DNA of 39,624 nucleotides from a virus. The stretch lies in UHGV virus genome UHGV-0068444; one strand, given 5' to 3'. Positions 50 through 24,646 of this stretch are shown here, piece by piece. The notes below the pieces were generated by a model, which ran no database searches, had not been told where the DNA came from, and saw nothing but the letters and a program-made list of their open reading frames with translations. The translations under genes were made by a program, and so were the position numbers. Every line of letters begins with the position of its first letter. The stretch's first letter is position 1.

Positions 50-667
50 GTGAAACGCATAAGGATAAAGAAACCAAGATGGATTTTTGTTATTTTATTT
101 TTTGTATTTTTAGGTATTCCATTATTTATTGATGGTATCAAGTATACTGATTACGCTTCAGAGAATTTGCTGCCTGAATTTACTGGTGTAATACTTGAGT
201 TTGTAATCATTCTTTATGTTATTGATTATATTCAAAAGAAAAATGAGCGTGATAATAAAATAAAAGCAGAAAAACGTTTGCGTGAAATGTTTATTTTTTT
301 CTTTAATAAACTGAATGACCACGTTCCTGAAAATTGCAGGATCGGATCTTTTTACGGGCGAGAGCATGATAAAAATAAGCGTCAAATGTCATTAATGAAA
401 GCCCATATAGAAAAACATGGGCTAGATGAAAAGGCAATAAGAGAAATTCGTATTCATTGCAAAGGTGATATTGATTTATTCAATAGTTTTATTCCAGTTG
501 TTGCTACATTAGAAGAGCAGCATTTAAAAGCATGGACGAGAATTTCATATTACATGAATGCAATAATTACGGAAAGAGAAACTGTACAATTTTCCGTTAT
601 AAAAATCATTGATAAAATACAGACATTTGATGATGCATCCTATAATAATAAACTGATAGTAGATTAA
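50..667 (+). CDS. Hypothetical membrane protein (two N-terminal hydrophobic helices plus charged cytoplasmic domain); AT-rich cargo gene
   Basis: 205-aa ORF with GTG start and AGGT-type RBS; visibly AT-rich versus the adjacent int; converges on and overlaps the int stop by 4 nt. Confidence 0.5.
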   Translation: MKRIRIKKPRWIFVILFFVFLGIPLFIDGIKYTDYASENLLPEFTGVILEFVIILYVIDYIQKKNERDNKIKAEKRLREMFIFFFNKLNDHVPENCRIGSFYGREHDKNKRQMSLMKAHIEKHGLDEKAIREIRIHCKGDIDLFNSFIPVVATLEEQHLKAWTRISYYMNAIITERETVQFSVIKIIDKIQTFDDASYNNKLIVD

Positions 668-1791
668 GAGGGTATTTTTTGCCATTCTTTACCTCTGTCA
701 TCATGATATTTATCTGTTTGATGCTGGGTTTTATGACCCAGCAATTTTTGTGTATCAATTCCCTGGTCTTTGTAAAGACGTTCAGACAATGATCTTTGCT
801 CATGGAATGTAGCGGGTGTTCCATCTCCCCATTTAATACAAGCCTTATCCCTCGCCTTACTGAAATTCATCGTTAATGTGTTCGATTTAACTTGTGCGCC
901 TCGTTTAGCCTGTGATGTAGCTCGGAAAAAGTGAATCAGATAGGGGCTAACTGCATAATCTCGACAGCGCGCAACGACGTCACGTAAACTCCAGTTAATC
1001 GCATTGAGGCGAAGAGAAAGAGGTATAGCAATTTTGCTGCCGGTTTTTTCCTGTTCGATATGCAGATGATCATCCCAGATATCGCTAAATTTCATTTTGG
1101 ATATGTCACCAAGACGTTGCCCAGTCACAAGGGCAAGCAGCATTGCATTTCCCATATATTGATGTTTCTTATCTGCGATATCGAAAATCTTCAGCCACTC
1201 TTCGAGACTAAGTCGTTGTCTGGTAATCTTGCGCCTGGGCTGTTTAGTAGCAAGGGCAGGGTTGTGACCAGGCGGCACTTCACCGTAGTGTTGGGCCTCT
1301 TTGAAAACATCGATCAGTACTGAACGAACAACTTGTGCCATTCTTGGTTGACCTGCAGATAGATACTCTTCAAGAATTTGAGCAATATCCCTGACATCAA
1401 CAGAAGATATGAGCTTCATTCCCGCACGTTCCTTAAGAAGTGCAACTGGCTTGGCTTTTTGTTTATACGTATTCTCCTTGATATCACCTGAAGCGAATCT
1501 TTCCTCCTGAATTTTCCAGTACCGCTCAAGCCAGGTAACAGTGGTAATTGACTTACCCTTGCCGGTAGCAATTCGATCGCTTATAGCCAGTACCTGTCTT
1601 GAACGCTGCTCAGCAAGTCTTGCGTTTGCCTCAGTAGCAATTGCTTTAGCCTCAACTTCATCAGTACCTAGGCTGTGAAATTTCCCCGTTACAGGATGCT
1701 TGTACCTCCAATACACTTTATTGACCTTACGACTGTATAGTGGATAGAGGTTAGGTATTGATACATTATTTTTACGTGGTCTCGCAGCCAT
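664..1791 (-). CDS. int: Tyrosine integrase, lambda Int family
   Basis: Start at MAARPRKNNVSIPNLY (ORF extends to 1869); N-terminus and C-terminal HEQRSLSERLY...LLGHK...YHDDRG region parallel lambda Int arm-binding and catalytic motifs. Confidence 0.9.
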   Translation of the reverse strand: MAARPRKNNVSIPNLYPLYSRKVNKVYWRYKHPVTGKFHSLGTDEVEAKAIATEANARLAEQRSRQVLAISDRIATGKGKSITTVTWLERYWKIQEERFASGDIKENTYKQKAKPVALLKERAGMKLISSVDVRDIAQILEEYLSAGQPRMAQVVRSVLIDVFKEAQHYGEVPPGHNPALATKQPRRKITRQRLSLEEWLKIFDIADKKHQYMGNAMLLALVTGQRLGDISKMKFSDIWDDHLHIEQEKTGSKIAIPLSLRLNAINWSLRDVVARCRDYAVSPYLIHFFRATSQAKRGAQVKSNTLTMNFSKARDKACIKWGDGTPATFHEQRSLSERLYKDQGIDTQKLLGHKTQHQTDKYHDDRGKEWQKIPS

Positions 1792-2017
1792 CGCTGAGGA
1801 TCCTTTGCAATTTTGGTGAATCAGATTTCTTGATAACCGGCGCAGCAAGTTCTCCAACCAATTCCGCATCCTCCCTAACTCTCCAGAGCCTACCTTGCTT
1901 CATTGCTGGTGGAGAAAAGAGATTTTGCTTAGCGTAACGGCGCAATGTCGAGACGCTAGGTGGATTACTTCTGTATTTATCGGTTGCCCATTCTTCAAGA
2001 GTTAACATCTGAATCAT
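1772..2017 (-). CDS. xis: Excisionase (lambda Xis-like)
   Basis: 81 aa; MLTLEEWA...RRYAKQNLFSPP resembles lambda Xis MYLTLQEW...RRWVRECRIFPPP; GGAG RBS; overlaps int start as in lambda. Confidence 0.75.
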   Translation of the reverse strand: MIQMLTLEEWATDKYRSNPPSVSTLRRYAKQNLFSPPAMKQGRLWRVREDAELVGELAAPVIKKSDSPKLQRILSDGCETT

Positions 2018-6492: not shown

Positions 6493-7203
6493 TTACAATT
6501 TGTTGTAAGCTATTGATTCGTGTAGTAATGCTTTACCCATAATGTACAATTGATCCTGGTTTTCTTCTGTTATGTACCAGTCTTTGTACACCGGGTTATC
6601 GGATAAAACTGCAAGTTGCAAGCCCTGCATCTGCAAGCGCTTCACATGGAAGTGCTGTCCGAATACAAACGCATAAACACCATCAACCTTGAAGTTTCTT
6701 ACCGAAACATCAAAAAACAACCTGTCTCCAGACTGTATAGTTGGACACATGCTGTCGCCATCGACAGTCATCACTTTTACGTCTTCCTGAGAACGATTTC
6801 CGAAAAGTGAACGAGCGTGCTCGGTGGTGAATTCAATGGCGTGTAGAACCTCAACAAATTCAGAGAGCATAAAACATCCAGGACCAGCACTCACAGTAAG
6901 GTCGAGAACTTCTACACGATAATTGTCGGCTTTGTGAGTGGGTACATCAACATCCATTTTTGAAGTTGGACTAAGACCATCCATCCATCCCCGGCTGATT
7001 TTCAAAGCATCCTCGATCTGCCGAGCAGCCTGCTCCCCAATATTCCGCTTATTAGGTTTACCAGCAGGGTAAAGCATCCGAGAAACAACAGTCGGATCAA
7101 GTCCTGCCTTTTCAGCAAACTCTCTTTGGGTCTTAAAGCGAGTTACTAACTCCTGAAGTTTGAGGCGTCGTAACTCGAAGATCTTAGGCGTTTCCGTTTT
7201 CAT
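6493..7203 (-). CDS. CI-type prophage repressor (N-terminal HTH, C-terminal S24 LexA-like autopeptidase)
   Basis: 236 aa; HTH-like N-terminus; C-terminal GDSMCPTI (Ser) and HVKRL (Lys) motifs of S24 peptidases; divergent from the cro-like gene. Confidence 0.85.
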   Translation of the reverse strand: MKTETPKIFELRRLKLQELVTRFKTQREFAEKAGLDPTVVSRMLYPAGKPNKRNIGEQAARQIEDALKISRGWMDGLSPTSKMDVDVPTHKADNYRVEVLDLTVSAGPGCFMLSEFVEVLHAIEFTTEHARSLFGNRSQEDVKVMTVDGDSMCPTIQSGDRLFFDVSVRNFKVDGVYAFVFGQHFHVKRLQMQGLQLAVLSDNPVYKDWYITEENQDQLYIMGKALLHESIAYNKL

Positions 7204-9027: not shown

Positions 9028-9894
9028 ATGAGCCAGATATTTGAAATCGTTCAATCGCTGTCGGGGCAAAGGAATAGCATCACCATTCCGGTCCCGTACC
9101 TCGATTATTTCTCCGGCGATCAGCAGGCGCATGCTTTGGGCGCTGTGCTAAACCAGCTCGTGTTCTGGTCTGGTAAATCAGATCTGAATGATGGCTGGTT
9201 TTATAAAGAGCACAGCGAGCTTGCGGCAGAGATTCGCGGCGTGAGTGAAGATCAGGTGCAGCGCCTGGTAAACAAGATTTGTACCCGCTGGCTACCAGGG
9301 GTTGTTGAAAAGGCGCAGCGACAGGTAAACGGCACGAAAAAGACGCATTACCGTATCAATGGCGAAGCGCTAATCAATGTTTTATTCCCGGCAACGCTGG
9401 ATTCCGCAGAATCGCGGAACGGGAAACGCGAAGTCGCGGAACCTATTCTCTATACAGATCATTACTCAGATCACCACAAACAGATCATTAACCCCTCTTG
9501 TCCGGTTGCGCCGCAACCAGACCCTGAGGTGTTGATCACTGATAACGCCATCCTGGTTTTAACTCATTTGAACCAGGTAAGCGGCTCCCGGTACCAGAAA
9601 TCTAAAACCTCTCTGGAAAACATACGTGCCCGTCTGCGTGAAGGTTATACCGTCAGCGACTTAACGCTGGTGATTGACCTCAAGCATGAACACTGGAACG
9701 GCAATGACGCGCAGTATCAGTACATGCGGCCTGAAACTCTGTTTGGGCCGAAAAAATTTGAGGGTTATCTGCAAAGCGGGCTCCGCTGGGATAAGAAAGG
9801 CCGTCCCCCTCGTGAAAGCTGGGGCGAGAAGAAACATGACCCGATGAAGTTCGGCCCGGTAGATACCAAAATTCCAGAGGGATTCAGAGGATGA
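9028..9894 (+). CDS. Phage replication initiation protein (conserved phage C-terminal replication domain)
   Basis: 288 aa; C-terminal ILVLTHLNQVSGSRYQKSKTSLENIRARLREGYTVSDL...HWNG resembles the Phg_2220_C-type domain of phage replication proteins. Confidence 0.6.
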   Translation: MSQIFEIVQSLSGQRNSITIPVPYLDYFSGDQQAHALGAVLNQLVFWSGKSDLNDGWFYKEHSELAAEIRGVSEDQVQRLVNKICTRWLPGVVEKAQRQVNGTKKTHYRINGEALINVLFPATLDSAESRNGKREVAEPILYTDHYSDHHKQIINPSCPVAPQPDPEVLITDNAILVLTHLNQVSGSRYQKSKTSLENIRARLREGYTVSDLTLVIDLKHEHWNGNDAQYQYMRPETLFGPKKFEGYLQSGLRWDKKGRPPRESWGEKKHDPMKFGPVDTKIPEGFRG

Positions 9895-11213
9895 TTGAAA
9901 ACAAATACTGCCGCGCGCTGGCCGAACTGCGTTCAAAACCAGCTCACGAATTGAAAGAAGTTGGCGATCAGTGGCGGACACCGGATCTGCTTTTCTGGGG
10001 TATCAACGCGCTATTTGGTCCATTAGTTCTGGACTTGTTTGCTGACGACGACAACGCGAAATGCCCGGCATGGTGCACCGCCGAAGATAACGCACTGACG
10101 CAGGACTGGACTGAACGTCTGGCAGAACTGGGTGGCGCGGCTTTTGCCAACCCTCCATATAGCTGCTCGCAGTACCACGAGAAACAGGCGATCACTGGTA
10201 TGACGCACATCATGAAGTACGCAGCAACCCAGCGCGAGAAGGGCGGTCGCTATGTATTCCTGATAAAAGCCGCGCCGAGTGAAACGTGGTGGCCGGAAGA
10301 TGCCGATCACATTGTATTCATTCGCGGGCGCATTGGTTTCGATCTGCCAGTGTGGTTTGTACCTGCTGACGAAAAACAGAAGCCCACCAGCGCGTTTTTT
10401 TCCGGAGCCATAGCTGTATTCGATAAGTCATGGCGTGGCGAGCGATTCAGCTATATCAACCGCACAGAACTGGAAACAAAAGGGCGAGCGTTTATGGCTT
10501 TGGCACAGTTTGCCACCAGCAAACCTCAGCCAGCAACCGCCACACCACCTGTAGCTGACAAGCCAGAAGCAGAGTTGCCACTTACCCAGAAAGATATTTT
10601 TGATATCAGCGGTGTTGAGGCGTGGGCATGCGTTAGAGCTGCGTTCGGCGATAAAGAAGAATACACATTCAGTGAATCGAAGTTTGGGCATACCTGGGCG
10701 GCGGATTCTGTCGAAGCACCGGAATTCACTCAGGTATCACCATTAACGATCGACAAAGCGAAGCTGCTTATTCGTGAGAGTATTTTGCTCGGTGTGGATG
10801 AGTGGCTGTTGTCGATTGAATTCGATGACGCTGCTGCGCGCCTGGATATGTCGGAACGTATTCGTACTGTTGCCCTTGAAGCATCTGGTGAATATGGCAT
10901 GAACAGTACTGATTTCATTGCAGCTATGGGAAGCCTGGATGTTTCCAGTTGGTCCAATATTCGCCAGATCCGCATGCACATCCGTGAGAAAGCTAAACCA
11001 GTAGCCGATCAGCTTCCCGAGTCCCGTATATGGCCACTGGAGGTTGGAATTGTATTCGACCAGGTGGATGGTGCTGACATGCTGGATGAATCACAGCAGA
11101 ACAAGCTGAAAGCCAACATCAATCAACTCTGGCTGGAACGAACGGCCACCAGCGAAATTATCACAATTGCGCAAGGTCTTGTCGACAGCATGCAGGGGGT
11201 AACTCATGCGTGA
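9891..11213 (+). CDS. Phage Dam-type N6-adenine DNA methyltransferase fused to a ~250-aa C-terminal domain of unknown function
   Basis: 440 aa; N-terminal WRTPDLLF...LVLDLFADD...FANPPYS motifs; Pro/Ala/Thr-rich linker (ATSKPQPATATPPVADKPEAELP) then an unassigned domain. Confidence 0.65.
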   Translation: MIENKYCRALAELRSKPAHELKEVGDQWRTPDLLFWGINALFGPLVLDLFADDDNAKCPAWCTAEDNALTQDWTERLAELGGAAFANPPYSCSQYHEKQAITGMTHIMKYAATQREKGGRYVFLIKAAPSETWWPEDADHIVFIRGRIGFDLPVWFVPADEKQKPTSAFFSGAIAVFDKSWRGERFSYINRTELETKGRAFMALAQFATSKPQPATATPPVADKPEAELPLTQKDIFDISGVEAWACVRAAFGDKEEYTFSESKFGHTWAADSVEAPEFTQVSPLTIDKAKLLIRESILLGVDEWLLSIEFDDAAARLDMSERIRTVALEASGEYGMNSTDFIAAMGSLDVSSWSNIRQIRMHIREKAKPVADQLPESRIWPLEVGIVFDQVDGADMLDESQQNKLKANINQLWLERTATSEIITIAQGLVDSMQGVTHA

Positions 11214-11727: not shown

Positions 11728-12414
11728 ATGAGCCAGTTAATCGTGAATGGTGTAGTAACAATGTCCAGCCGTGATATTGCGGATCTGGTTCAGAGTAAAC
11801 ACAGTGACGTGAAACGCTCGGCTGAGCGTCTTGTTGCTGCGGGAATTTTAACCGCGCCATTGGCGCAGTTCGATTTTGAGCATAACGGTAATGTGTACCA
11901 GGAGTATCGTTTTAACAAACGCGACTCTCTGGTGATTGTTGCCAGACTGTCACCTGAATTTACCGCCGCGGTCGTCGATCGCTGGCAGGAACTGGAAGAA
12001 GGGCAGAGTGTCAGTGTTCCCCGCTCATTACCGGAAGCGCTTCGCCTGGCTGCTGATTTAGCCGAGCAGAAAGAGCAACTGACGATCCAACTGGCAGCCG
12101 CGGCGCCAAAAGTGGAGTTTGTTGATCGTTATTGCTCAGCAAAAGGCTCCATGTCATTCCGGCAGGTAGCCAAATTGCTTAACGCAAAAGAAACTGAGTT
12201 TCGTCTGTTCCTTATTGAACGCAATATCCTGTATCGCCTCGGCGGCACACTTACCCCCATGGCGCAGCACATTTCCGCGGGAAGATTTGAAGTTAAGACG
12301 GGAACATCGAGCACATCCAATCACGCATTCAGCCAGACGCGTTTCACTGCCAAGGGAGTACGCTGGATTGGTGGTTTGTGGGCTGAACATATTGCAGGGG
12401 GGCAAGCGGCGTGA
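11728..12414 (+). CDS. Rha-family regulator with C-terminal KilA-C/antirepressor-like domain
   Basis: Start MSQLIVNG after GGAG RBS (ORF extends to 11689); N-terminal Rha-like region, C-terminal antirepressor-like region. Confidence 0.6.
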   Translation: MSQLIVNGVVTMSSRDIADLVQSKHSDVKRSAERLVAAGILTAPLAQFDFEHNGNVYQEYRFNKRDSLVIVARLSPEFTAAVVDRWQELEEGQSVSVPRSLPEALRLAADLAEQKEQLTIQLAAAAPKVEFVDRYCSAKGSMSFRQVAKLLNAKETEFRLFLIERNILYRLGGTLTPMAQHISAGRFEVKTGTSSTSNHAFSQTRFTAKGVRWIGGLWAEHIAGGQAA

Positions 12415-13406
12415 GGGCTTTGTTAACTCCTGAAGTAGCCCATCGCATGGGGATTGTGTTGTTTCGTCCCGGCGCGGAACTGATGCACCTCTTCATGCGC
12501 GGTCGCGTCCTTCTCGAACCTGAACCAGAAGAAATGGCGTCATTCAGTACAGGAGCTGTTCCCGCCGCCATTCAGCCGCTGGCTGATGATCCGGTAATGC
12601 GGCAGGTCTTCGGGAATGAGCGGGTTATTCAGCGTGCCGGTGGGCTTCCTTCCCTTGAGCAATGGTTGAGTACCCGGTTTGATTGCCAGTGGCCACATTC
12701 ATCGTGGCACGACAAGAACTTCACAACAATGCGGCACCCACCAGGAAGCATTCGCCTGTGCTGGCATTGCGATCACACTTTGTCCGGGCAGCATACTGAA
12801 CAGCTTGCAGTTATAGCTGCCGGAAACCTGGTATCCTGGATTCTGGAAGTCATTCGGCGTGATTCTGGTTTTCCCGAGTCGCATATCCTGACGCTTCCGG
12901 AACTGTGCTGGTGGATGGTCAGAAACGACCTGGCTGATGTTATTCCGGAAAGCGTTGCGCACAGGGGGTTGCGCCTTCCGGATGAGAAGATCCGCTCTGT
13001 CATGAGGGAAAGCGACATAGTGCCTTCCCCGTCTGCAACCAGCCTCGTGCAGAAGAAAGCGAAGAAGATCCTCACGCTCTCTGTTGATCCGGAGTCTCCT
13101 GAATCTTTCATGCTCAGGCCAAAACGCCGCCGCTGGGTAAATGAGACATACACCCGCTGGGTTAAAACACAACCCTGTGAGTGTTGCCGACGGCCAGCAG
13201 ATGATCCGCACCATATCGTAGGGCACGGTTTGGGTGGTACAGCAACAAAAGCCCATGACCTCTTCGTGATCCCTCTGTGCAGAGAGTGCCACGACGAGTT
13301 ACACGCCGATGTACCGGCATTCGAGCAGAAGCATGGTACGCAGCTTGAGCTGCTACTGCGTTTTATGGATCGGGCGCTGGCGATCGGCGTAATTGCGAAA
13401 GCTTAA
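12411..13406 (+). CDS. DUF968-family phage protein (YdfU-like) with Cys/His-rich C-terminus
   Basis: 331 aa; GTG start overlapping the upstream stop; C-terminal CECC...HHIVGHG...CRECHDELH cluster; lies directly upstream of the Q-like gene as ydfU does in Qin. Confidence 0.5.
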   Translation: MRALLTPEVAHRMGIVLFRPGAELMHLFMRGRVLLEPEPEEMASFSTGAVPAAIQPLADDPVMRQVFGNERVIQRAGGLPSLEQWLSTRFDCQWPHSSWHDKNFTTMRHPPGSIRLCWHCDHTLSGQHTEQLAVIAAGNLVSWILEVIRRDSGFPESHILTLPELCWWMVRNDLADVIPESVAHRGLRLPDEKIRSVMRESDIVPSPSATSLVQKKAKKILTLSVDPESPESFMLRPKRRRWVNETYTRWVKTQPCECCRRPADDPHHIVGHGLGGTATKAHDLFVIPLCRECHDELHADVPAFEQKHGTQLELLLRFMDRALAIGVIAKA

Positions 13407-13427
13407 GTGTATGGAGCGCAAAGAAGC

Positions 13428-14117
13428 ATGAATCAACAAGACCTGAATTTTGTAAGAATAGAATTGCGCCGCGCGCTACCTGACCTCTCTGGGGGAACAA
13501 AAGGGCAGCTTGAGGCTTTCAGTGAACACCCACCAGCAGACAAAAATGCCACCCCGCGCCGTGGAATTCATCTCGTCGAACTCGAAGGAGAGAAGGGGCC
13601 TCGCTTTGTTAACTCGCTTTCCGCGCCATTGTATGTATTGGAAACACGCAGCCGCTGCAGGCCAATGCCGCCGATAAAAGATGCGGAATTTGAGTCCGCG
13701 CCGTGGCGTAGGGCAGTGTCCGCGCTTAGTGGATACCAGCAGGCCTGGTTGCGGTACTGCTACGGTTTTGACCTTAGCTATAAGCACCAGGTGATGATGT
13801 GTGAATACGTCTGGAAAACTTATCAGAAATGTCTGGGTGATAATTCCCTTCAGGAGCGCGTAGTAAAGAAACTGATTGGCCTGGTATGGCTGGCAGGGCA
13901 GGAAATTGCCGCAACCAGAAATAATGAAACCTATAAAGACTATGCTGGTGCAGCGTTGGCCCGCATGGTTAGCGTTGATCGTTCGACATGGTTGCGTGTC
14001 TATTCAGGGCACTGGGCTGGGTTAAAGGCCGCTTTTACCCAGCTTGATGAATCTGCGTTGGCAATGGCTCTTGAATACTATGAGGAAGAAGAAGCCCTCA
14101 AAGTGGCAGAAATGTAA
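13428..14117 (+). CDS. Late-gene antitermination protein, Q-like
   Basis: Start MNQQDLNF (alternative GTG at 13407); position between nin-like genes and a tR'-type terminator; family assignment by context and recollection. Confidence 0.55.
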   Translation: MNQQDLNFVRIELRRALPDLSGGTKGQLEAFSEHPPADKNATPRRGIHLVELEGEKGPRFVNSLSAPLYVLETRSRCRPMPPIKDAEFESAPWRRAVSALSGYQQAWLRYCYGFDLSYKHQVMMCEYVWKTYQKCLGDNSLQERVVKKLIGLVWLAGQEIAATRNNETYKDYAGAALARMVSVDRSTWLRVYSGHWAGLKAAFTQLDESALAMALEYYEEEEALKVAEM

Positions 14118-14212
14118 AGTAAATTTCACTATCTCCTTCAAACGCGCTTGCAAAATGCAACAAAATAAGCCATATTTAAAGCGTATTTGATATGTTGCCA
14201 AAGTTTTATAAA
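14118..14212 (+). promoter_or_regulatory. Presumed late promoter (PR') and Q-utilisation region
   Basis: Inferred from position between the Q-like gene and the tR'-like terminator; candidate -35 TTGCAA and -10 TATTTA hexamers; exact site not determined. Confidence 0.35.
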
Positions 14213-14233
14213 CCCGCCAATGAGCGGGTTTTT
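14213..14233 (+). terminator. tR'-like intrinsic terminator
   Basis: cccgc-caatga-gcggg hairpin followed by TTTTT, about 100 nt downstream of the Q-like stop. Confidence 0.7.
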
Positions 14234-14280
14234 GCGTTATAATTCACCGATTTAAACCAATTGTTTTAAATAGGTGAAGT

Positions 14281-15132
14281 ATGAAAATAGATAATCCCGA
14301 AAATCCACTTGAACGAAACGATTTTTCGATGGATGACTTCCATCACTACTTAAGGGAGTTTGATAAAGCTGTATGTGAAGCGAATGCTGTAAGTCAGGGG
14401 GTTGGTGTGCGAATGGCTGAGGCTTTTAAAGGGTGGTCTACATACATTTTTTCACGAATCTGCATTCATGCTTCAATAATGATTTCCAACGTACCAAAAT
14501 CAAGATGGGCTAAGCGGGATTATGACTTTTGGGATTTTTCGGCGATTGCACCTCATGTAAGAGCGATTCTGGAAGCTGAGTTATTGTTTATGTATTTATC
14601 TGAGAATCCAGATTCAACTGAGGAGTGGTCAGCAAAGTTGAATGTCATGCACATGAATGATTGTGTAAAGAGAATTGAGTTATTTACATCTAGTGATAAT
14701 ACGAAAGCATTGGATTTTTATCATGAACAAAAAGATATAATAACTGAGAGACTTAATAACAACCCTGTTTTTTTATCCCTTGAACAAGGAACCAGAAAAC
14801 GTTGCTTGACTGGAAAAGCGCTTATGATTCCAAATCGAGATGAGTTATTGGTTAAACTGGGAAAAGATCCAAAGTCATTTAAAATAATGTTCGATTTTTT
14901 ATCTCATTATACGCATATACTACCTATGTCATATTATAAAATGGAGCCAAACGGAAGAGGAACTGGTTGTTTTAACAACTATGACTTTGGCTATATGATT
15001 ATGGGGATGATTATTTGTACTGAATCCTTGACTAAGTGTACAGATAGATTAGTAGAACTTTTTCCTGATGTTAGACGGTTGCGAAAAGGAACTAAATCAA
15101 AATTCACGTTAGGTCCTAAACCTACAAAATAA
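14281..15132 (+). CDS. AT-rich hypothetical protein (283 aa), cargo gene; function unknown
   Basis: ATG after AGGTGAAG RBS; visibly lower GC than flanking phage genes; no hydrophobic segments; no motif recognised. Confidence 0.6.
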   Translation: MKIDNPENPLERNDFSMDDFHHYLREFDKAVCEANAVSQGVGVRMAEAFKGWSTYIFSRICIHASIMISNVPKSRWAKRDYDFWDFSAIAPHVRAILEAELLFMYLSENPDSTEEWSAKLNVMHMNDCVKRIELFTSSDNTKALDFYHEQKDIITERLNNNPVFLSLEQGTRKRCLTGKALMIPNRDELLVKLGKDPKSFKIMFDFLSHYTHILPMSYYKMEPNGRGTGCFNNYDFGYMIMGMIICTESLTKCTDRLVELFPDVRRLRKGTKSKFTLGPKPTK

Positions 15133-15162
15133 CAATGAGTCGCTTGCTGCTATTTTAAAGGC

Positions 15163-15185
15163 TTCCAAATGGAAGTCTTTTATAA
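15163..15185 (+). terminator. Weak hairpin terminator after the 14281-15132 gene
   Basis: cttcc-aaat-ggaag stem-loop followed by tcttttat. Confidence 0.35.
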
Positions 15186-15350
15186 TTTCAGGTTTCGCAA
15201 ATTATACTTATCTTCACATTTTCATAATAGCGCATAAGCCAGCCCCCCCTCCATCAACCACAGCGCCATACGAACTATCGGAGGTGAGGCTAAATTAGTA
15301 ATCGTTCTTACCTGCACAGGTGCATAAAAATCAGCCTAAAATGCGAGTTT

Positions 15351-16013
15351 TTATGAAGAGAGCAGCATGACTTTTTCTTTTGCGGGCGAAGGTGACTGCT
15401 CTTTCAAAGGGAAAATTATAAATGCTATAAATGCAGTAAATAATACTATGAAAGCTAGCACTGTAACTTTCCTTGAAGATGATAGGGCTTTGTTATATTC
15501 CTTGGCTATTTTGTTCGTTATATGGATCTTAGTGCTATTTATTTCATCTTTTAGTATGGATAATTTATTTATAAATTCCTGTGTTTCTTCTCGAGAGTAA
15601 AGTTCTGAAGCATCTCTTGGGGTTTCATGTGGATGCCGAGTATAACCAAGTATTTGTGGTATTAAATTACCATGCGATTGAACTACAGATTCATATTTCT
15701 TATAGCAAGCATTATCAAAAAATCTCATTCTTATGCTAAGTTCTCTGAGTTTGTCAACGTCTAGAGAAACTTGTTCGTTGGCAATAATTAAATCTCCGCG
15801 GTTTAATGTATTCTTGTGTTGAAAAATTAGTAAAAGCCATTCTGTATTATTGTAAAGCTTTTCAAGATTGGCATGTATATCAAGTCCGAGTTTTTCATAT
15901 GCGGATAATTTGACCTCTTTTTCCTTTGCAGAAAGAGAAGATGAATAAGCCAGTAATCCGCTTATTATGGCAACAATAAATGTTCCTATAATGGTTAAGG
16001 TATTCGAGTCCAT
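15351..16013 (-). CDS. AT-rich hypothetical membrane protein (one N-terminal and one C-terminal TM helix), cargo gene
   Basis: Start MDSNTLTIIGTFIVAIISGLL (ORF extends to 16070); C-terminal VLAFIVLFTAFIAFIIF hydrophobic helix; convergent with the 14281 gene. Confidence 0.55.
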   Translation of the reverse strand: MDSNTLTIIGTFIVAIISGLLAYSSSLSAKEKEVKLSAYEKLGLDIHANLEKLYNNTEWLLLIFQHKNTLNRGDLIIANEQVSLDVDKLRELSIRMRFFDNACYKKYESVVQSHGNLIPQILGYTRHPHETPRDASELYSREETQEFINKLSILKDEINSTKIHITNKIAKEYNKALSSSRKVTVLAFIVLFTAFIAFIIFPLKEQSPSPAKEKVMLLSS

Positions 16014-16120
16014 TGTATTCTTCAAAAGTTGGTCAAAAATATATTGTAATATTTTAATGTATAAAATCAATCATTTCCCCTCATTCTGAGAGGACTCCCA
16101 GCAACAAAGAGGGGGGCTAA

Positions 16121-16507
16121 ATGTCCGATCCGATTTCCGGTTCTGGGATGGCTGGTGGTGTCCTGACGGGGGCCAGCGTCTATGGATTTCTGTCCGGAAC
16201 CGATTACGGCGTGGTGTTTGGCGCATTTGCCGGGGCTGTATTTTACATTGCAACCGCAGCGGATCTAAGTGCAGCGCGCCGACTGGCATATTTTCTGGTG
16301 TCGTATATTGCGGGGATCCTTTGTTCCGGGCTGGTGGGTTCAAAGCTGGCTCAGGCTACCGGCTACAGTGATAAACCACTGGATGCCATTGGCGCCGTAA
16401 TCGTTTCTGCTTTAGCCGTCAAAATCCTGACATTCCTGAATAATCAGGATGTCGGCTCGCTGGTGGCGCTGATAACGCGCCGGGGAGGTTCAGGTGGTAC
16501 AAAATGA
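16121..16507 (+). CDS. Putative holin (three predicted TM segments)
   Basis: 128 aa, Gly/Ala-rich hydrophobic segments; first gene of the lysis cassette upstream of endolysin. Confidence 0.55.
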   Translation: MSDPISGSGMAGGVLTGASVYGFLSGTDYGVVFGAFAGAVFYIATAADLSAARRLAYFLVSYIAGILCSGLVGSKLAQATGYSDKPLDAIGAVIVSALAVKILTFLNNQDVGSLVALITRRGGSGGTK

Positions 16508-16775
16508 CCCATCGGCAACTTTTAATGCATTGCTTTGTGCTGGGGTAGTGTTAACCCTGATGTTTTACCGTCGCGGCGACTCGCGACATCGACCGTGGAT
16601 ATCTCGCTTAGCGTGGCTGCTTACGGTCATCTACAGCGCCGTTCCGCTGGCGTATCTGTGCGGTATTTACCCGTACTCATCATGGGCCACTATCGGGGCC
16701 AACTTTATTTTCCTGTCCGTGCTGGTCGCCGTAAGAGGCAACGTGGCACGTCTGGTTGATCATCTGAGGCACTAA
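16494..16775 (+). CDS. Second small membrane lysis protein (holin or antiholin-like)
   Basis: 93 aa, three hydrophobic segments; overlaps the upstream gene; stop overlaps the endolysin start. Confidence 0.45.
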   Translation: MVQNDPSATFNALLCAGVVLTLMFYRRGDSRHRPWISRLAWLLTVIYSAVPLAYLCGIYPYSSWATIGANFIFLSVLVAVRGNVARLVDHLRH

Positions 16776-17389
16776 TGAACCAATCACAATTTCAGCAGGC
16801 GGCTGGTATCAGCGCCGGGCTTTCTGCGCGCTGGTTTCCGCACATTGACGCGGCAATGAAAGAGTTTGGCATTACAGCTACGAACGATCTGGCTATGTTC
16901 ATCGCCCAGGTTGGGCATGAGTCTGCTGGCTTTACCTCGCTGGTGGAAAGCTTCAACTACTCGGTAGAGGGGCTGAAGAAAACCTTTGGTAAACGGCTTA
17001 CTCCTTATCAGTGTGAAATGCTGGGTCGTGTCGATGGTAAGCAGGTGGCCCACCAGCCGCAAATAGCCAATCTGGTTTATGGTGACCGCATGGGGAATAA
17101 CAGCCAGGGTGACGGCTGGAAATATCGCGGTCGCGGCCTGCTGCAAATCACGGGTCGTGAGAACTACACCAAATGCGGCACGGCGCTGAAACTTGACCTT
17201 ATCAGTACGCCAGAATTGCTAACGCAAGAGCGACATGCGGCTCGTTCGGCTGCGTGGTACTTCACGTTACGCGGTTGCCTGATGTATTCGGGTGACGTGG
17301 CACGCGTTACGCAGATTATTAACGGCGGACAGAACGGCATTAAAGACCGCCGTGAACGTTACGCCAAAGCTAAAGCTGCACTGGTGTGA
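16775..17389 (+). CDS. Endolysin, glycoside hydrolase family 19 (chitinase-like lysozyme)
   Basis: 204 aa; AQVGHESAGF...YRGRGLLQITGRENY resembles the GH19 catalytic core. Confidence 0.8.
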   Translation: MNQSQFQQAAGISAGLSARWFPHIDAAMKEFGITATNDLAMFIAQVGHESAGFTSLVESFNYSVEGLKKTFGKRLTPYQCEMLGRVDGKQVAHQPQIANLVYGDRMGNNSQGDGWKYRGRGLLQITGRENYTKCGTALKLDLISTPELLTQERHAARSAAWYFTLRGCLMYSGDVARVTQIINGGQNGIKDRRERYAKAKAALV

Positions 17390-17396
17390 GGTCAGT

Positions 17397-17666
17397 ATGG
17401 GGCTTGAAATGATTATCGGCCTGGTTGTTGCTGTGCTGGCTGCAATTGCAGGTGCTTTTGGGCTGGGCAAATCACGCGGTACCAGTATCGCTGAAACAAA
17501 AGCGGACCAACAACGCACTGAAGAACGTGCAATAGCTATTGAAGCGGTTGCAGAACGCCGGGTAGAAACAACAAAAGGAGCCAGGGATGTACAACAGACT
17601 GTTAACCATATGCCTGATGACGCTGCTGATCGCGAGCTGCGCAAAAACTGGACACGTAAGGATTGA
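17397..17666 (+). CDS. Inner-membrane spanin (Rz-like)
   Basis: Start MGLEMIIGLVVAVLAAIAGAFGL (N-terminal TM) after GAGG RBS; charged coiled-coil-like remainder; directly after endolysin. Confidence 0.6.
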   Translation: MGLEMIIGLVVAVLAAIAGAFGLGKSRGTSIAETKADQQRTEERAIAIEAVAERRVETTKGARDVQQTVNHMPDDAADRELRKNWTRKD

Positions 17667-17808
17667 GGTTATTGACACCGGCTGCGATTGGGTAAAACCC
17701 ATCTACGGCACTGCTCATGATTGGGAAGTGCTGGACAGGCAGACCAAGAAAGACATTCTTATGCATAACAAAGTGTGGATGTCAAACTGTGGCTCTATAA
17801 CTTATTGA
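17587..17808 (+). CDS. Outer-membrane lipoprotein spanin (Rz1-like), overlapping Rz out of frame
   Basis: MYNRLLTICLMTLLIASC has a lipobox (LIASC); starts inside the Rz-like ORF in another frame. Confidence 0.6.
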   Translation: MYNRLLTICLMTLLIASCAKTGHVRIEVIDTGCDWVKPIYGTAHDWEVLDRQTKKDILMHNKVWMSNCGSITY

Positions 17809-18459
17809 TTTTGTTTTTTTGTTGTCTACCATATCAGGCAATGTGAAGGCATATAGAAGAAATACTTCGGTGAAACCAATCATTTCTTGAGCATCTTCTT
17901 TTGAAAATTCTTCATCAGAATGAACTGCTCCATTGGAATCGATTCGAACTATATGTGCCCATTCCCTCATTTGATCTGTAATCAGTCCCTTAGCATGCAA
18001 CATAGAAATCCGTTTAACCAATTTTTCATCTTTTGAGTCATTTCCCAGTAACTCCCGTGTAGCAATGTCCAAGACTTTACGGCAAAGCATAACGGATGTG
18101 TCGAAACGACAGCGCCCTAAGTTGTCTTTTGCTTCTATGAAAGCCATAGCAGCACGTGGCGGAGTGTGTTCGGGGGCGTTAAGGAGGGTGGGTTTCGGGA
18201 TGATATCAATCAACTGGTACTCAGTATTTCCAGGAATGATTACGTTTACATCATTATTTTGCCTAGATTTTGCACGAGGTAAATAACCACCGGGATTATT
18301 CATTTTTACAATAGCAATACCTGATTGAAAACAGCTTCGACAACAAAATGCAATATTAACTAAAGGCCCGGCGTTGATACGCAGTTCTGCCCATCCTTCA
18401 AGGACAGCATTTTCCCTCAGACAATGTGGGCAAGTGATATCGAAAGTGAGAATTCGCAT
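17782..18459 (-). CDS. Hypothetical protein with N-terminal zinc-ribbon (CPHC...CCRSC) and C-terminal helical domain; reverse-strand cargo gene
   Basis: Start MRILTFDITCPHCL after GGAG RBS (ORF extends to 18504); moderately AT-rich; C-terminal region loosely reminiscent of DUF4145-type domains (unverified). Confidence 0.55.
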   Translation of the reverse strand: MRILTFDITCPHCLRENAVLEGWAELRINAGPLVNIAFCCRSCFQSGIAIVKMNNPGGYLPRAKSRQNNDVNVIIPGNTEYQLIDIIPKPTLLNAPEHTPPRAAMAFIEAKDNLGRCRFDTSVMLCRKVLDIATRELLGNDSKDEKLVKRISMLHAKGLITDQMREWAHIVRIDSNGAVHSDEEFSKEDAQEMIGFTEVFLLYAFTLPDMVDNKKTKSISYRATV

Positions 18460-19140
18460 GACTCTACTCCATACATTAAAAGAAATTGAAAATGAATTAC
18501 ACAATGCACAACGACCTGAGTCTACACTCCTTCAACGATATGAAGTATCGAATGAGATTAAAAAAAAGGAGTTTGTAGTCGCTTTGATCGGTAAACTGAT
18601 AGAATTGGACCGCCGTCTCTATGTCACATCATTGAAGCCTTAGTTTCAATTTTACCGATTTATCGCTTAAGGGGTAGGACTTCAACACTACTAAGTGAGC
18701 ATTGCAGCAGGCATTCAGGGGAATGCTGTGACAGTAGTTAGCTAGGGTAAACCGTTTGCGCCTGGGGATTTTACTTTGCGACGGAAAATTAAAAAACTAT
18801 ATGATTTCTTATCCCACTAGGATGTCTGCGGACTACTACTGACTGTTTAGGCTATTACGAGGGGCTCAAACTCAACGTCTGGCATCAACGCAGAACTGAA
18901 AAAGTCGCCATGAATGTGGTTACGGTATTTGGTGGGATATAAACGTACCTTCATTTCTAAGCTTGATAATCACCTTTGTCCGAATTGCCTACGCGATAGT
19001 CATGTAGTTTTAGTCATAACCGTTTACCCTATTGATGTCAAGATAAATTGGATAACACTGATGAATCGAACCTCTAAATCCTTTGATGGGCCACTCATAG
19101 CTGACTGGTTCAAAAAAGTGTTATCAATGGTATGATAAGT

Positions 19141-19170
19141 TGAGATGAAAGGTGTAAATGAACTATAATA
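19141..19170 (+). promoter_or_regulatory. Sigma70-like promoter for the 19205-19854 two-gene cassette
   Basis: -35 TTGAGA (19141-19146), 18-bp spacer, -10 TATAAT (19165-19170). Confidence 0.5.
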
Positions 19171-19204
19171 ATTCAACAGTTAATCTGAGAAAAATGGATT
19201 ATGT

Positions 19205-19474
19205 ATGTCGAATGTAAAAAAAATAGATGCTATAGTTCAAAATTTATTTGAATTCAGAGATGCTACAGGTGAACTTACGGATAAAAATATTGTTTTAATA
19301 CAAAAAATCATAACGAACTTACCTGACTATGCTGGTAAGGATCCATATGAATTTTATTCATCATTTTCTGAAGATATTAATGAGTCGCTCAAAGCAATTG
19401 CCAATTATCATAAGGCACATGCTAAATACATTAATGCCCTCGATAAATTAGCAGAGCTTAGGTCGGAGGGGTAA
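19205..19474 (+). CDS. Small hypothetical soluble protein (89 aa), first gene of an AT-rich cassette
   Basis: Very AT-rich ORF; stop lies 2 nt before the start of the next gene. Confidence 0.55.
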   Translation: MSNVKKIDAIVQNLFEFRDATGELTDKNIVLIQKIITNLPDYAGKDPYEFYSSFSEDINESLKAIANYHKAHAKYINALDKLAELRSEG

Positions 19475-19476
19475 TA

Positions 19477-19854
19477 ATGGCTACGGAAGATATTCAGGCT
19501 TTGTTATCTAAAGTTAATGCGTTAAGATTTGAAGATAAAAGAATAGAGAAGGAAACAGGAGAGATTGAAAATGAAATTCAGGCTCAATTTCTTCGTGATG
19601 GTAAAACAAGGAGTACATTAACCATAACATTTATGAGAGGCTTTTTTGGTCTTATCGTTTTTTCTTTTATATTTGTGATAGCTTATAACTATTGCGCAGT
19701 GCAATGGGTACTTCAATTACAAAGCAAAGGGCTCATGGAGGCTTCTAAAAGTATCGCACTACTTGAGTTAGATAAGGTGTTATCTATTATGGTTAGTGCG
19801 TTAGGAACATCTCTTGGGTTTATAATTGGCTATTATTTTAAAGACAAAAAATAA
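19477..19854 (+). CDS. Hypothetical membrane protein (125 aa): charged helical N-terminus plus two C-terminal TM helices
   Basis: FFGLIVFSFIFVIAYNY and VLSIMVSALGTSLGFIIGYYF hydrophobic segments; followed by a strong terminator. Confidence 0.55.
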   Translation: MATEDIQALLSKVNALRFEDKRIEKETGEIENEIQAQFLRDGKTRSTLTITFMRGFFGLIVFSFIFVIAYNYCAVQWVLQLQSKGLMEASKSIALLELDKVLSIMVSALGTSLGFIIGYYFKDKK

Positions 19855-19930
19855 ATAATTTAATTTTACATTGCTATTTATGTTTTGCTTTTAAGATTTT
19901 TAACTTTCTAGATGTAGAGTTATTGTTAAA

Positions 19931-19958
19931 GCACTGGTATTTGCCAGTGCTTTTTTAT
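19931..19958 (+). terminator. Intrinsic terminator closing the 19205-19854 cassette
   Basis: gcactgg-tatttg-ccagtgc hairpin followed by TTTTTT. Confidence 0.7.
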
Positions 19959-20360
19959 TAAAATCCGCGGATTAATGACGGCAATCATGAATACTCCTCC
20001 AAAGACTGATCCAACGATACGGGTGTATAAGTCACACTTGTTTAATCTGTGATTGATGGCACTATAATTTATGTTGCACAACATAAACTGCCGATGGAGG
20101 GAATTGAGTGCTGAGCATGTCAGACATAAGTGTGTTGTCGAAGGTCTCCTCAGGCATGGTTTCTGCATAACGTCGACACTTGAAAGCCTCCATAATGACA
20201 ATAAAGTATAAGTATTATCATTATTAATTGTCACTTGCCGTTGCGACATGCTTGGGCGGCGACCGCCTAAGTTCTCTTTATAAATGAGAAGTTCCCGCTA
20301 GCGACCGTTTCTGATTCTTTTTTTCTACTAAGTTTGTATCAAATAAACAGGATAATGCCG

Positions 20361-20723
20361 ATGCCAGCACGAGCAAAGCGTCCATGCCGGCACAAGGGCT
20401 GTGCGGCAGTTACCAACGATGCCAGTGGCTATTGTGATCAACACCGACAGCGGCATGCTGGTGATGGCTGGCGTAACTATCAGGCAGGAAAGAGCAGGCA
20501 GGAACGTGGATATGGGCGGACCTGGGAAATTAAACGGGTGCGTATCCTTCAGCGTGATAAGTACCTGTGTCAGAACCATCGCCGGCAGAAGATTGCAAAA
20601 AAGGCGACCAGCGTTGACCACATCATTCCAAAAGCTCATGGCGGTACTGATGACGATTTCAATCTTGAGTCGTTGTGCTGGGACTGCCACAGAGCGAAGA
20701 CGGCAAGAGAGCGTATCCGATGA
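20361..20723 (+). CDS. HNH endonuclease (terminase-associated type)
   Basis: Start MPARAKRPCRHKGC (ORF extends to 20334); Cys pairs CRHKGC...CDQH and C-terminal HIIPKAHGGTDDDFNLESLCWDCH motif; sits just upstream of terminase small subunit. Confidence 0.8.
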   Translation: MPARAKRPCRHKGCAAVTNDASGYCDQHRQRHAGDGWRNYQAGKSRQERGYGRTWEIKRVRILQRDKYLCQNHRRQKIAKKATSVDHIIPKAHGGTDDDFNLESLCWDCHRAKTARERIR

Positions 20724-23214: not shown

Positions 23215-23387
23215 TCACTCTTTTAAGTTTTATTATCGGCCTCGCCGGAGCCGGGTTAGTGTCTGCCGGTGCCTGGCTTATTTCACCTGCAGCCGGGCTT
23301 ATTACTGGCGGTTCAATCTGCCTGCTGTGGTCATTTTTAATCGCGAAATCGATGTCCGCCAGCGTAATTAAATCAGGGGGTGAATAA
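23208..23387 (+). CDS. Small hydrophobic protein (59 aa) between terminase and portal
   Basis: Hand-translated MLITLLSFIIGLAGAGLVSAGAWLISPAAGLITGGSICLLWSFLIAKSMSASVIKSGGE; start overlaps the terminase stop, stop overlaps the portal start. Confidence 0.45.
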   Translation: MLITLLSFIIGLAGAGLVSAGAWLISPAAGLITGGSICLLWSFLIAKSMSASVIKSGGE

Positions 23388-24646
23388 TGTTCATTCCCCA
23401 GATGTTTCGGGGTAAATCTCAGTCTGGTGGTGGTTTCTGGCAGGCGATGCTGGGTGGGGTGAGTTCCAGCCAGAGCAAGGCGGGGATCATTATCACTCCT
23501 GAAACCGCACTGGCGTTATCGGCGGTCCGGGCATGCGTAACGCTTCTGGCAGAATCGGTGGCGCAGTTGCCGTGTGAACTTTACAGGCGAGGCGCTAACG
23601 GAGGCCGTGAACGGGCGACTGACCACCCTGTTTATGATCTGATTCATTCCCAGCCCAACAAAAAAGACACCTCGTTTGAATACTTTGAGCAGCAACAGGG
23701 CCTGCTCGGGCTGGAGGGAAATTGCTACTCGATCATCGACAGGGACGGGAAAGGGTATCCCCGCGAATTAATCCCGGTTAATCCCAAAAAAGTCATCGTC
23801 CTGAAAGGGCCTGACGGGATGCCCTATTATGAACTCCCCGAAATTGGCGAAACGTTGCCAATGCGCATGATGCATCATGTGAAGGTTTTCTCGCTGGATG
23901 GTTATATCGGTAGCTCTCCGATCCAGACGAACGCAGACGTTCTTGGGCTGAACCTGGCCGTTGAAGAGCATGCTTCTCAGGTTTTTCGCCGTGGCACAAC
24001 GATGAGCGGCGTTATTGAGCGACCAAAGGAGGCTCCGACAATAAAGAACCAGGAGAAGATTGACCAACTTCTTGCTAAATGGACGGATCGTTATTCCGGT
24101 ATGCGTAATGCCTTTTCTGTCGCATTGCTTCAGGAAGGGATGAGCTACAAACAGCTATCTCAGGATAATGAGAAAGCGCAGCTGTTGCAGTCCCGCCAGT
24201 GGGGCGTGGAGGAAGTTTGCCGACTCTATAAAATCCCGCCTCATATGGTGCAGATGCTGGCGAAAGCCACAAATAACAACATTGAGCATCAGGGGCTGCA
24301 GTTCGTCATGTATACGCTTTTAGCCTGGCTGAAACGCCATGAAGGCGCATTAATGCGCGATCTGCTTTTACCCAGCGAGCGCGGTAGTCTGTACATTGAA
24401 TTCAATGTATCCGGCCTGCTGCGCGGGGATCAGAAGTCACGCTATGAATCTTATGCGCTGGGCCGTCAGTGGGGCTGGTTATCGGTTAATGACATTCGCC
24501 GCATGGAGAACCTTCCTCCCATCGCCGGTGGGGACAAATACCTGACGCCTCTGAATATGGTCGACAGTAAACAAATCTTACCTGGCAATAACGCGCCAAC
24601 AGCTAAACAACTGGCAGAAATCGAAACTATTCTGGCCAGAGCCTGA
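23387..24646 (+). CDS. Portal protein (HK97-like family)
   Basis: 419 aa; position after terminase large subunit and before the prohead protease. Confidence 0.85.
   Translation: MFIPQMFRGKSQSGGGFWQAMLGGVSSSQSKAGIIITPETALALSAVRACVTLLAESVAQLPCELYRRGANGGRERATDHPVYDLIHSQPNKKDTSFEYFEQQQGLLGLEGNCYSIIDRDGKGYPRELIPVNPKKVIVLKGPDGMPYYELPEIGETLPMRMMHHVKVFSLDGYIGSSPIQTNADVLGLNLAVEEHASQVFRRGTTMSGVIERPKEAPTIKNQEKIDQLLAKWTDRYSGMRNAFSVALLQEGMSYKQLSQDNEKAQLLQSRQWGVEEVCRLYKIPPHMVQMLAKATNNNIEHQGLQFVMYTLLAWLKRHEGALMRDLLLPSERGSLYIEFNVSGLLRGDQKSRYESYALGRQWGWLSVNDIRRMENLPPIAGGDKYLTPLNMVDSKQILPGNNAPTAKQLAEIETILARA

Follow-up and report, generated by a model that had tools for sequence, protein, structure and literature searches.

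The window analysed here is the whole 39,624-nucleotide stretch of UHGV virus genome UHGV-0068444, a lambdoid prophage. Between its lysis cassette and its packaging genes lies a minus-strand gene whose predicted product is a zinc-ribbon HEPN ribonuclease (hereafter the RNase gene), abutted by a small divergent open reading frame (ORF), the partner. Replication and Dam genes, followed by DUF968, were observed between the S24 repressor and antiterminator Q. The main features of the window are given below, with strand where assigned.

664–1869, minus strand: lambda-type integrase
6493–7203, minus strand: S24 repressor
13407–14117: antiterminator Q
14118–16120: island of 35% GC
16121–16775: two holins
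16775–17389: GH19 endolysin
17292–17808: Rz/Rz1
17587–17808, plus strand: Rz1-type o-spanin (lipobox LIASC), overlapping the 3′ end of the RNase gene in convergent orientation; left edge of the cassette
17782–20333: 2.5-kb island of 37% GC, holding the RNase gene, the 61-aa ORF and two plus-strand ORFs
17782–18459, minus strand: zinc-ribbon HEPN gene, 225 aa, ATG start (ORF; Pfam DUF4145; PHROG 1305; hhalign against the RAZR family)
17814–17820, minus strand: homopolymer of 7 A (T on the plus strand); all relatives have one A fewer
18458–18643, plus strand: 61-aa partner ORF, divergent from the RNase gene and co-oriented with the late operon (phrog_8371, E 8e-6)
18644–18717: stretch beyond the partner stop, approximate right edge of the mobile cassette
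19205–19854, plus strand: two ORFs in the 37%-GC island, with an 11/12 promoter-like site ahead
20334–20723: HNH, then terS and terL
23387–24646: HK97-type portal

The RNase gene and Rz1 are convergently oriented, with the RNase gene lying antisense to the late operon. A sequence-only reading of the window had placed a reverse-strand protein of ~225 aa, moderately AT-rich and opposite to the late operon, between the spanin genes and the packaging module, and this description holds: the ORF encodes 225 aa on the minus strand, it is preceded by Rz/Rz1 and followed by HNH, terS, terL and portal, and its GC content of 0.406 is below that of both the adjoining upstream lysis cassette (0.532) and the window overall (0.497). 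Other ORFs share this gap with it: the island also holds the 61-aa ORF and the two plus-strand ORFs.

The gene can be regarded as real because its product has homologues in ~146 database clusters at 45–97% identity. An alternative TTG start would lengthen the ORF to 18504; homologues begin at the ATG. The copy in the window is slightly altered at its 3′ end, where the sister contig UViG_2663762810_000004 (99.97% identical) and all other relatives have 6 A in the homopolymer run. The extra A shifts the last 10 codons out of register, giving the tail KKTKSISYRATV instead of KKQNQ and extending the ORF 27 nt into Rz1, and touches the unconserved tail only; a sequencing error in the homopolymer could account for it. 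Across 12.7 kb, the window matches IMGVR_UViG_3300029184_000060 at 100% identity. A consensus scan for sigma-70 promoters and terminators found no convincing promoter upstream or terminator downstream of the RNase gene, with no minus-strand sigma-70 matches of at least 9/12 in 18460–18720 and with counts around the gene no better than in shuffled sequence, while 18460–18740 read by eye gave weak candidates only. Rfam and tRNA scans of the window returned no matches.

The predicted protein divides into the following parts, all encoded on the minus strand.

18289–18459, minus strand: Cys4 zinc ribbon, residues 1–57 (C10, C13, C40, C43), a three-stranded sheet and presumed sensor core
18199–18288, minus strand: extra helix and two strands, residues 58–87 (AF2 helix 61–69, strands 73–75 and 81–87)
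18154–18198, minus strand: proline-rich interdomain linker, residues 88–102, aligned to the RAZR linker
17821–18153, minus strand: HEPN-fold DUF4145 domain, residues 103–213
17920–17946, minus strand: putative catalytic motif R172-IDS-N176-GAV-H180 (RIDSNGAVH in the translation), aligned to RAZR R146/N150/H154 (9y9c)

The N-terminal CxxC...CCxxC pattern noted in the sequence-only reading is present as C10-P-H-C13 and C39-C40-R-S-C43. Among 32 aligned homologues (45–97% identity), C10, C13, C40 and C43 are invariant and C39 is variable, indicating a Cys4 site. An AF2 model built from this 32-sequence alignment (mean pLDDT 85) is laid out as a ribbon (20–53), the extra helix and two strands (61–87), an extended linker and a helical bundle (101–223), with the ribbon strands at 20–27, 33–40 and 46–53 (pLDDT ~90). 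Weak profile matches to the Rpb9 zinc ribbon (E ~0.06) parallel the comparison of the RAZR ribbon with 1QYP in the RAZR paper (PMC13017515). Residues 58–87 fall in an unaligned hhalign gap between ribbon and linker and have no RAZR counterpart, while the linker, whose prolines P88, P96 and P100 are invariant, aligns with RAZR region 63–79. The helical C-terminal domain had been likened to DUF4145, a likeness confirmed by both profile and fold: Pfam DUF4145 (PF13643) matches residues 120–198 (E 7.4e-11, 42.4 bits against a gathering cutoff of 23.1), and this above-threshold match is accompanied by a four-helix up-down core and an R-x(4-7)-H motif, the features that characterise DUF4145/HEPN domains. 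R172, N176 and H180 are invariant in the 32 close relatives and at least 90% conserved among 104 representatives that are only 25–43% identical to the query. Over nearly its whole length (residues 2–219, against profile positions 11–220 of 226) the protein also matches PHROG 1305, labelled 'DNA binding protein' (E 8.1e-43).

PD-T7-4, a defence gene from E. coli UMB1727, was renamed RAZR for ring-activated zinc-finger RNase (PDB 9Y9C/9Y6U; Zhang et al., Nature 2026, PMC13017515; Vassallo et al. 2022, PMC9519451). In RAZR, specificity is set by an N-terminal Cys4 zinc ribbon, which a conserved linker joins to a C-terminal DUF4145/HEPN domain; R146 and H154 of that domain are catalytic, and their replacement by alanine abolishes defence (PMC13017515). 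A RAZR 24-mer forms around the Gp77 ring of phage SECphi27 or around T7-type portal rings; once assembled, RAZR cleaves single-stranded RNA (ssRNA) non-specifically and infection is aborted (PMC13017515).

Profile searches, among the checks proposed in the sequence-only reading, recovered both DUF4145/HEPN and RAZR. When a profile of the 104 sequences was searched against the PDB (hmmsearch), the RAZR chain 9y9c was the sole significant match (E 5e-7), with an alignment that spans the CPHC...CxxC ribbon as well as the region between linker and catalytic motif, and that places R172/H180 on R146/H154. The close-family profile reached RAZR chain 9y9c_OA at E 1.8 only, and single-sequence phmmer of the window protein against the PDB gave noise only (E > 1). 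Alignment of the window family with the RAZR family by hhalign (98.4%, E 5e-15) covered 172 collinear columns over both domains, with a ~30-residue unaligned insertion in the window family between ribbon and linker. Against a 219-aa RAZR sequence reassembled from two database fragments, BLASTP of the window protein aligned 135 residues at 29% identity (E 3e-4), all of them in the linker and HEPN domain. The PADLOC PD-T7-4 model (PDLC04109) gave the window protein 15.9 bits (E 1.6e-3, HEPN part only), compared with 339.7 bits (E 1e-102) for the rebuilt RAZR used as a control, and was matched at E ≤ 1e-3 by 51 of the 104 family representatives, none of them strongly (best 1.8e-11).

These comparisons indicate that the window family and RAZR share ancestry, architecture and catalytic machinery, although the relationship is distant. 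The low PADLOC score, and the recovery of homology only profile-to-profile, set the window family apart from the RAZR family and support its treatment as a separate family (PHROG 1305) within the RAZR superfamily. The suggestion of the sequence-only reading that the gene is accessory, with a possible defence role, gains support from this profile-level homology to a defence RNase. Since the similarity is remote, the transfer of mechanism, above all of ring-templated activation, is uncertain.

RAZR and the window protein are both ~220 aa in length and combine a CPHC...CxxC Rpb9-like Cys4 ribbon, a proline-containing linker and a C-terminal DUF4145/HEPN domain with an R-x3-N-x3-H motif, and both are found on mobile elements. 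Their sensor domains differ: that of the window protein comprises ~90 residues, compared with ~65 in RAZR, being ~25–30 residues larger through an extra helix and two strands, and the two are unrelated in sequence except for the four cysteines. The window gene occupies a lambdoid prophage cargo slot and runs antisense to the operon of the phage. The single RAZR-like locus examined, by contrast, is found outside a late operon, near an integrase and resolvases. RAZR is a single-gene system, whereas the window family is paired with a conserved gene in 56/80 loci (the 212-aa clade described below being the exception); no such divergent ~60-aa partner is described for RAZR, and the RAZR-like locus examined lacks it.

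The wider family was assessed with HMMER over 1.84 billion representatives of 50%-identity clusters, which returned 2,804 relatives at E ≤ 1e-3, a set that represents the broader DUF4145/HEPN signal, and 142 at E ≤ 1e-30. The listed relatives are, with few exceptions, ~200–230 aa long and align across most of their length. The family is carried by lambdoid prophages of Escherichia/Shigella (Stx phages), Klebsiella and Providencia and by metagenomic relatives. Megablast of the RNase gene against 5,426 complete E. coli genomes gave no match, and an E. coli orthologue (~50% amino-acid identity) is present in 37 of these genomes, always on the chromosome. A scan of species-representative genomes gave 10 loci. 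Neither the E. coli orthologue (WP_000060692.1) nor its partner (WP_050866385.1) was found among the entries of the DefensePredictor tables that were searched.

Classification of 80 IMG/VR loci by tblastn with marker proteins revealed two main slots for the RNase gene: 43 loci lie in the replication|nin slot (to NinB), 24 at the lysis|terminase junction (spanin/endolysin to terS) and 13 were unclassified. The gene is antisense to the phage operon in all 67 classifiable viral loci, with every marker on the opposite strand, and is likewise opposite in strand to adjacent phage genes at every annotated or Pfam-labelled locus examined. The closest relatives (97% identity) share the lysis|terminase junction of the window in phages that vary in endolysin (GH19 or GH108) and in head module, and DNA similarity with them runs from the Rz1 end to ~18717. 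Three loci (L004–L006) are ~85% similar over the whole 17404–18717 block, with a fourth (L007) diverging earlier, at ~18600–18625. This is how a mobile cargo cassette behaves.

Insertion between modules, opposite strand, deviant base composition and variable presence among related phages are all found for the RNase gene and are the hallmarks of a moron, and we infer that it is transcribed autonomously. In lambda, bor and lambdap78 lie on the reverse strand between Rz1 and cos; these and other lambdoid morons share the slot and reverse orientation of the window gene, are AT-rich and vary among similar phages, although Bor is an outer-membrane lipoprotein unrelated to the window RNase. The sequence-only reading was therefore wrong to take the lysis-to-terminase junction of lambdoid phages as usually unoccupied, given lambda bor/lambdap78 and the 24/80 homologue loci at that junction. 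Its proposal to use enrichment in defence islands as a test is also ill-suited to this family, which is found in prophage cargo slots and not in chromosomal defence islands, so that absence from such islands would not refute a defence role.

The new element described here is a conserved partner gene that is tightly linked to the RNase gene. The two ATG codons overlap in the tetranucleotide CATG (18457–18460), and the same geometry, with a recognisable protein (motif DRPEFTL-QRYE...ALIGKLIEQDR), recurs in Providencia, Enterobacter, Tatumella, Rosenbergiella, Symbiopectobacterium and Stx-phage loci. The E. coli partner is annotated in RefSeq with an identical 2-nt overlap, and the closest named relative of the window partner, from Leclercia adecarboxylata, is 82% identical. 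Differences between partner orthologues at codon positions 1/2/3 are 0.46/0.35/0.62, a skew that constitutes a coding signature for the ORF. A partner HMM detected the gene, always divergent and abutting, in 56/80 loci, including 43/43 in the replication|nin slot and 6/24 at the lysis|terminase junction. It is missing mainly from a clade of 212-aa proteins in Klebsiella/Citrobacter/Enterobacter, in which terS lies 34–357 nt upstream. Conversely, a search with a peptide pattern of the small ORF recovered 30 viral contigs, each of which carries the RNase gene in the same arrangement (30/30). The partner family comprises 66 clusters, all 'hypothetical' or nameless, with no Pfam match and no sequence match in the PDB; the AF2 model is a three-helix bundle (pLDDT 92) for which no informative structural neighbour was found. 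The invariable antisense orientation of the RNase gene relative to the phage operon puts the partner in sense orientation wherever it occurs, and the partner would be transcribed with the lytic programme.

Taken together, we consider it probable that the RNase gene is prophage cargo (a moron) encoding a RAZR-superfamily ribonuclease, the most likely benefit of which would be abortive-infection immunity of the lysogen against other phages. By analogy with RAZR, the RNase would be produced in the lysogen from its own promoter and held as inactive oligomers. The N-terminal ribbon domain would then recognise a protein of an incoming phage, which for RAZR is a large ring assembly, portal or recombinase, and binding would re-arrange the HEPN dimers to form active sites for non-specific ssRNA cleavage. 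Such cleavage would stop translation, and the infected cell would release no phage. That the window family is activated on rings specifically, as RAZR is, seems less assured than its role as a defence RNase, and because its sensor domain is larger and different, the trigger probably differs from that of RAZR. A search of papers and supplements found no experiment on the window protein or on any member of its subfamily.

If a prophage encodes a sensor of phage structural assemblies, the assembly of its own virions must not kill it, and a linked small gene oriented with the lytic operon is a candidate answer to this problem of self-tolerance. The partner, read with the lytic operon, may modulate or silence the RNase during the lytic growth of the prophage itself, and antisense late transcription through the RNase gene may likewise dampen it, both being weaker suggestions than the immunity role. 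The fullest form of this idea, in which the RNase and its start-codon-sharing partner form a two-component prophage immunity module with a self-tolerance switch, the partner binding and silencing the RNase, is offered tentatively, as a possibility that we rate as doubtful. The RNase would be made in the lysogen and fire on a structure of superinfecting phages, and the partner would be transcribed only in the lytic operon of the prophage, early from the nin site and late from the lysis|terminase site. Silencing, aided by antisense transcription, would permit assembly of the phage's own portal and other rings without suicide.

Three other explanations are less consistent with the data, because of the partner-less clade, the invariant catalytic residues and the antisense orientation, respectively. 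The first is an addiction or stabilisation module resembling a toxin–antitoxin pair, in which the 61-aa protein would act as antitoxin to the HEPN RNase, the pair stabilising the prophage and sensing no phage. We regard this as unlikely. Toxin–antitoxin pairs are normally co-transcribed, whereas the RNase gene and its partner diverge from a common CATG, and the partner resembles neither MNT nor any other known antitoxin. Furthermore, the partner-less clade (18/24 lysis|terminase loci, for example the Klebsiella P0112 group, in many contigs) keeps the RNase intact, and an intact RNase without a partner throughout a clade indicates that the enzyme is not constitutively toxic. HEPN–MNT type II/VII systems pair a minimal HEPN toxin with an adjacent, co-transcribed MNT nucleotidyltransferase as antitoxin; the window locus has no MNT gene and its partner is three-helix and divergent. 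A toxin–antitoxin role and an abortive-infection role are compatible with each other.

The second explanation, that the protein is a zinc-ribbon nucleic-acid-binding regulator of prophage or host expression with a non-catalytic HEPN-like domain, is suggested by the PHROG 1305 label 'DNA binding protein', which has been carried into RefSeq for Shigella phage 75/02, by the occurrence of Rpb9/TFIIS-type ribbons in transcription factors and by the fact that non-catalytic HEPN domains are common. The conservation of R-x3-N-x3-H (invariant in the 32 close relatives, at least 90% in the 104 distant ones) would be unexpected for a degenerate domain, however, and the equivalent residues are essential in RAZR. 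No domain evidence for the label was found in the window protein, in which Pfam detected neither an HTH nor any other DNA-binding domain, and the label appears to be an inference rather than a tested function; we therefore consider a regulatory role very improbable. It is just as improbable that the RNase serves the phage's own lytic growth or induction (turnover of host or competitor RNA, or counter-defence) and not lysogen immunity. In favour of this reading, all enterobacterial loci examined are phages or prophages, and the partner ORF is co-oriented with lytic operons. Against it, the RNase gene runs antisense to the lytic operon at all classified loci (67/67), an orientation in which lytic transcription would oppose it and which is a signature of lysogeny-expressed cargo such as lambda bor. 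In addition, RAZR, its nearest relative of known function, protects the host as an Abi protein (PMC13017515).

Under the favoured reading of a lysogen-protective RNase, the window family would be a widespread and uncharacterised sister of RAZR in Enterobacterales prophages. RAZR established that infection can be sensed by a small zinc-finger RNase that wraps around ring assemblies of the phage (PMC13017515); a different, larger sensor, probably responding to a different phage cue, would extend the known range of this immune mechanism. As the PADLOC PD-T7-4 model makes no call for the window family and phage databases label it 'DNA binding protein', the family is missed in defensome surveys and in host design for phage therapy.

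Other systems share individual elements with the window protein. The N-terminus of HsdR (PRK11448) and the BREX-associated BxaP have the Pfam domain and HEPN clan in common with it (PMC10799925; Anantharaman et al. 2013, PMC3710099), and a weak match to NCBIfam PRK11448 was found at residues 134–194. In HsdR and BxaP, however, DUF4145 is the N-terminal module of a large multidomain protein in restriction–modification (R-M) or BREX loci, whereas in the window protein, which is small and stands alone, it forms the C-terminal effector. The type I R-M association of DUF4145 was rejected for the window, which has no R-M genes nearby and no BREX genes either. HEPN Abi proteins borne by prophages or plasmids and HEPN toxins (HepS of Gifsy-1, AbiV, HEPN/MNT toxins and LsoA/RnlA) have differing sensor modules, none with a zinc ribbon, and no sequence-level relation of the window protein to them was detected. 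DS-38 of DefensePredictor (WP_001313577.1) is a validated E. coli defence protein with HEPN and zinc-finger domains (bioRxiv 10.1101/2025.01.08.631726; PMC13092281 supplements). It was considered as an experimental match and rejected, as it is 366 aa long with an N-terminal HEPN domain and multiple C-terminal zinc fingers, the reverse of the architecture of the window protein, and BLASTP with the sequence from Table S8 gave E 3.6. The distant homologues in Latescibacterota and Roseomonas are located between IS1595 copies or beside antirepressor and SLATT/DUF4231 genes.

The RNase gene, which encodes a ZnR-HEPN (DUF4145) protein, is accompanied by a divergent small gene, the partner ORF, and the start codons of the two genes overlap in a single CATG. 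The partner ORF carries a coding signature and is conserved in 56 of the 80 loci, at a length of 60–80 aa.

Window 18458-18643, + strand: partner ORF, phrog_8371
L001 4757-5002, L013-L020 and L027-L056: copies of the partner ORF at other loci with RNase-gene homologues

All independent finds of the partner ORF (30/30) adjoin the RNase gene, and its orientation is in every case that of the phage lytic operon. A search of the partner ORF against Pfam gave no match. Its product is predicted to fold as a three-helix bundle.

Where the RNase-partner module occupies the nin site, it is directly adjoined by a toxin-antitoxin pair, with which it forms a small accessory cluster flanked by the replication genes and NinB.

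L001 4141-4702 and L140 1563-2202: RelE/ParE toxin and HTH antitoxin pair, in Shigella and E. coli prophages of Stx-phage type

At the lysis/terminase site of the window, the RNase module is separated from HNH/terS by a pair of neighbouring small ORFs. No other part of the window is as AT-rich as the stretch that holds them (32.5% GC), and a sigma-70-like site (11/12) lies ahead of the pair at 19140-19169. These ORFs probably constitute a second, independent cargo unit.

Window 19205-19474, + strand: small ORF matching the uncharacterised PHROG 21707
Window 19477-19854, + strand: small ORF matching the uncharacterised PHROG 20796 (E 8e-49)

An island of 35% GC (window 14118-16120), bordered by antiterminator Q on one side and the holin on the other, occupies the position equivalent to that of stx in Stx phages. 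Its two ORFs, neither of which matched PADLOC or PHROG, may be additional cargo or defence candidates. Upstream of Q, a Dam-family methyltransferase gene and a DUF968/HNHc gene form a pair. In L004 and L005, the closest relatives from metagenomes, this pair again lies beside the cassette.

Window 9891-11213: Dam-family methyltransferase (440 aa)
Window 12411-13406: DUF968/HNHc protein
Window 14281-15132, + strand: 283-aa ORF with a sub-threshold DUF5677 match (E 2e-4)
Window 15351-16070, − strand: 239-aa ORF with hydrophobic stretches near both ends, as read from the sequence

At the 3′ end of the RNase gene, the window has a homopolymer of 7 A on the minus strand (17814-17820), compared with 6 A in a 99.97%-identical contig and all relatives. 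The extra A, which may be a sequencing artefact, frameshifts the last codons and prolongs the ORF into Rz1.

Among database entries P0270-P0389, many proteins of the type of RAZR, the E. coli ring-activated zinc-finger RNase, are 146–160 aa long and begin at the equivalent of RAZR M63, and therefore lack the zinc finger. Some of these entries may be pseudogenes or gene-calling artefacts, in which case they would distort surveys of RAZR homologues. At the one locus inspected (Raoultella planticola, L137 5821-6441), the N-terminal zinc-finger domain is a separate 54-aa ORF, split off by a frameshift.
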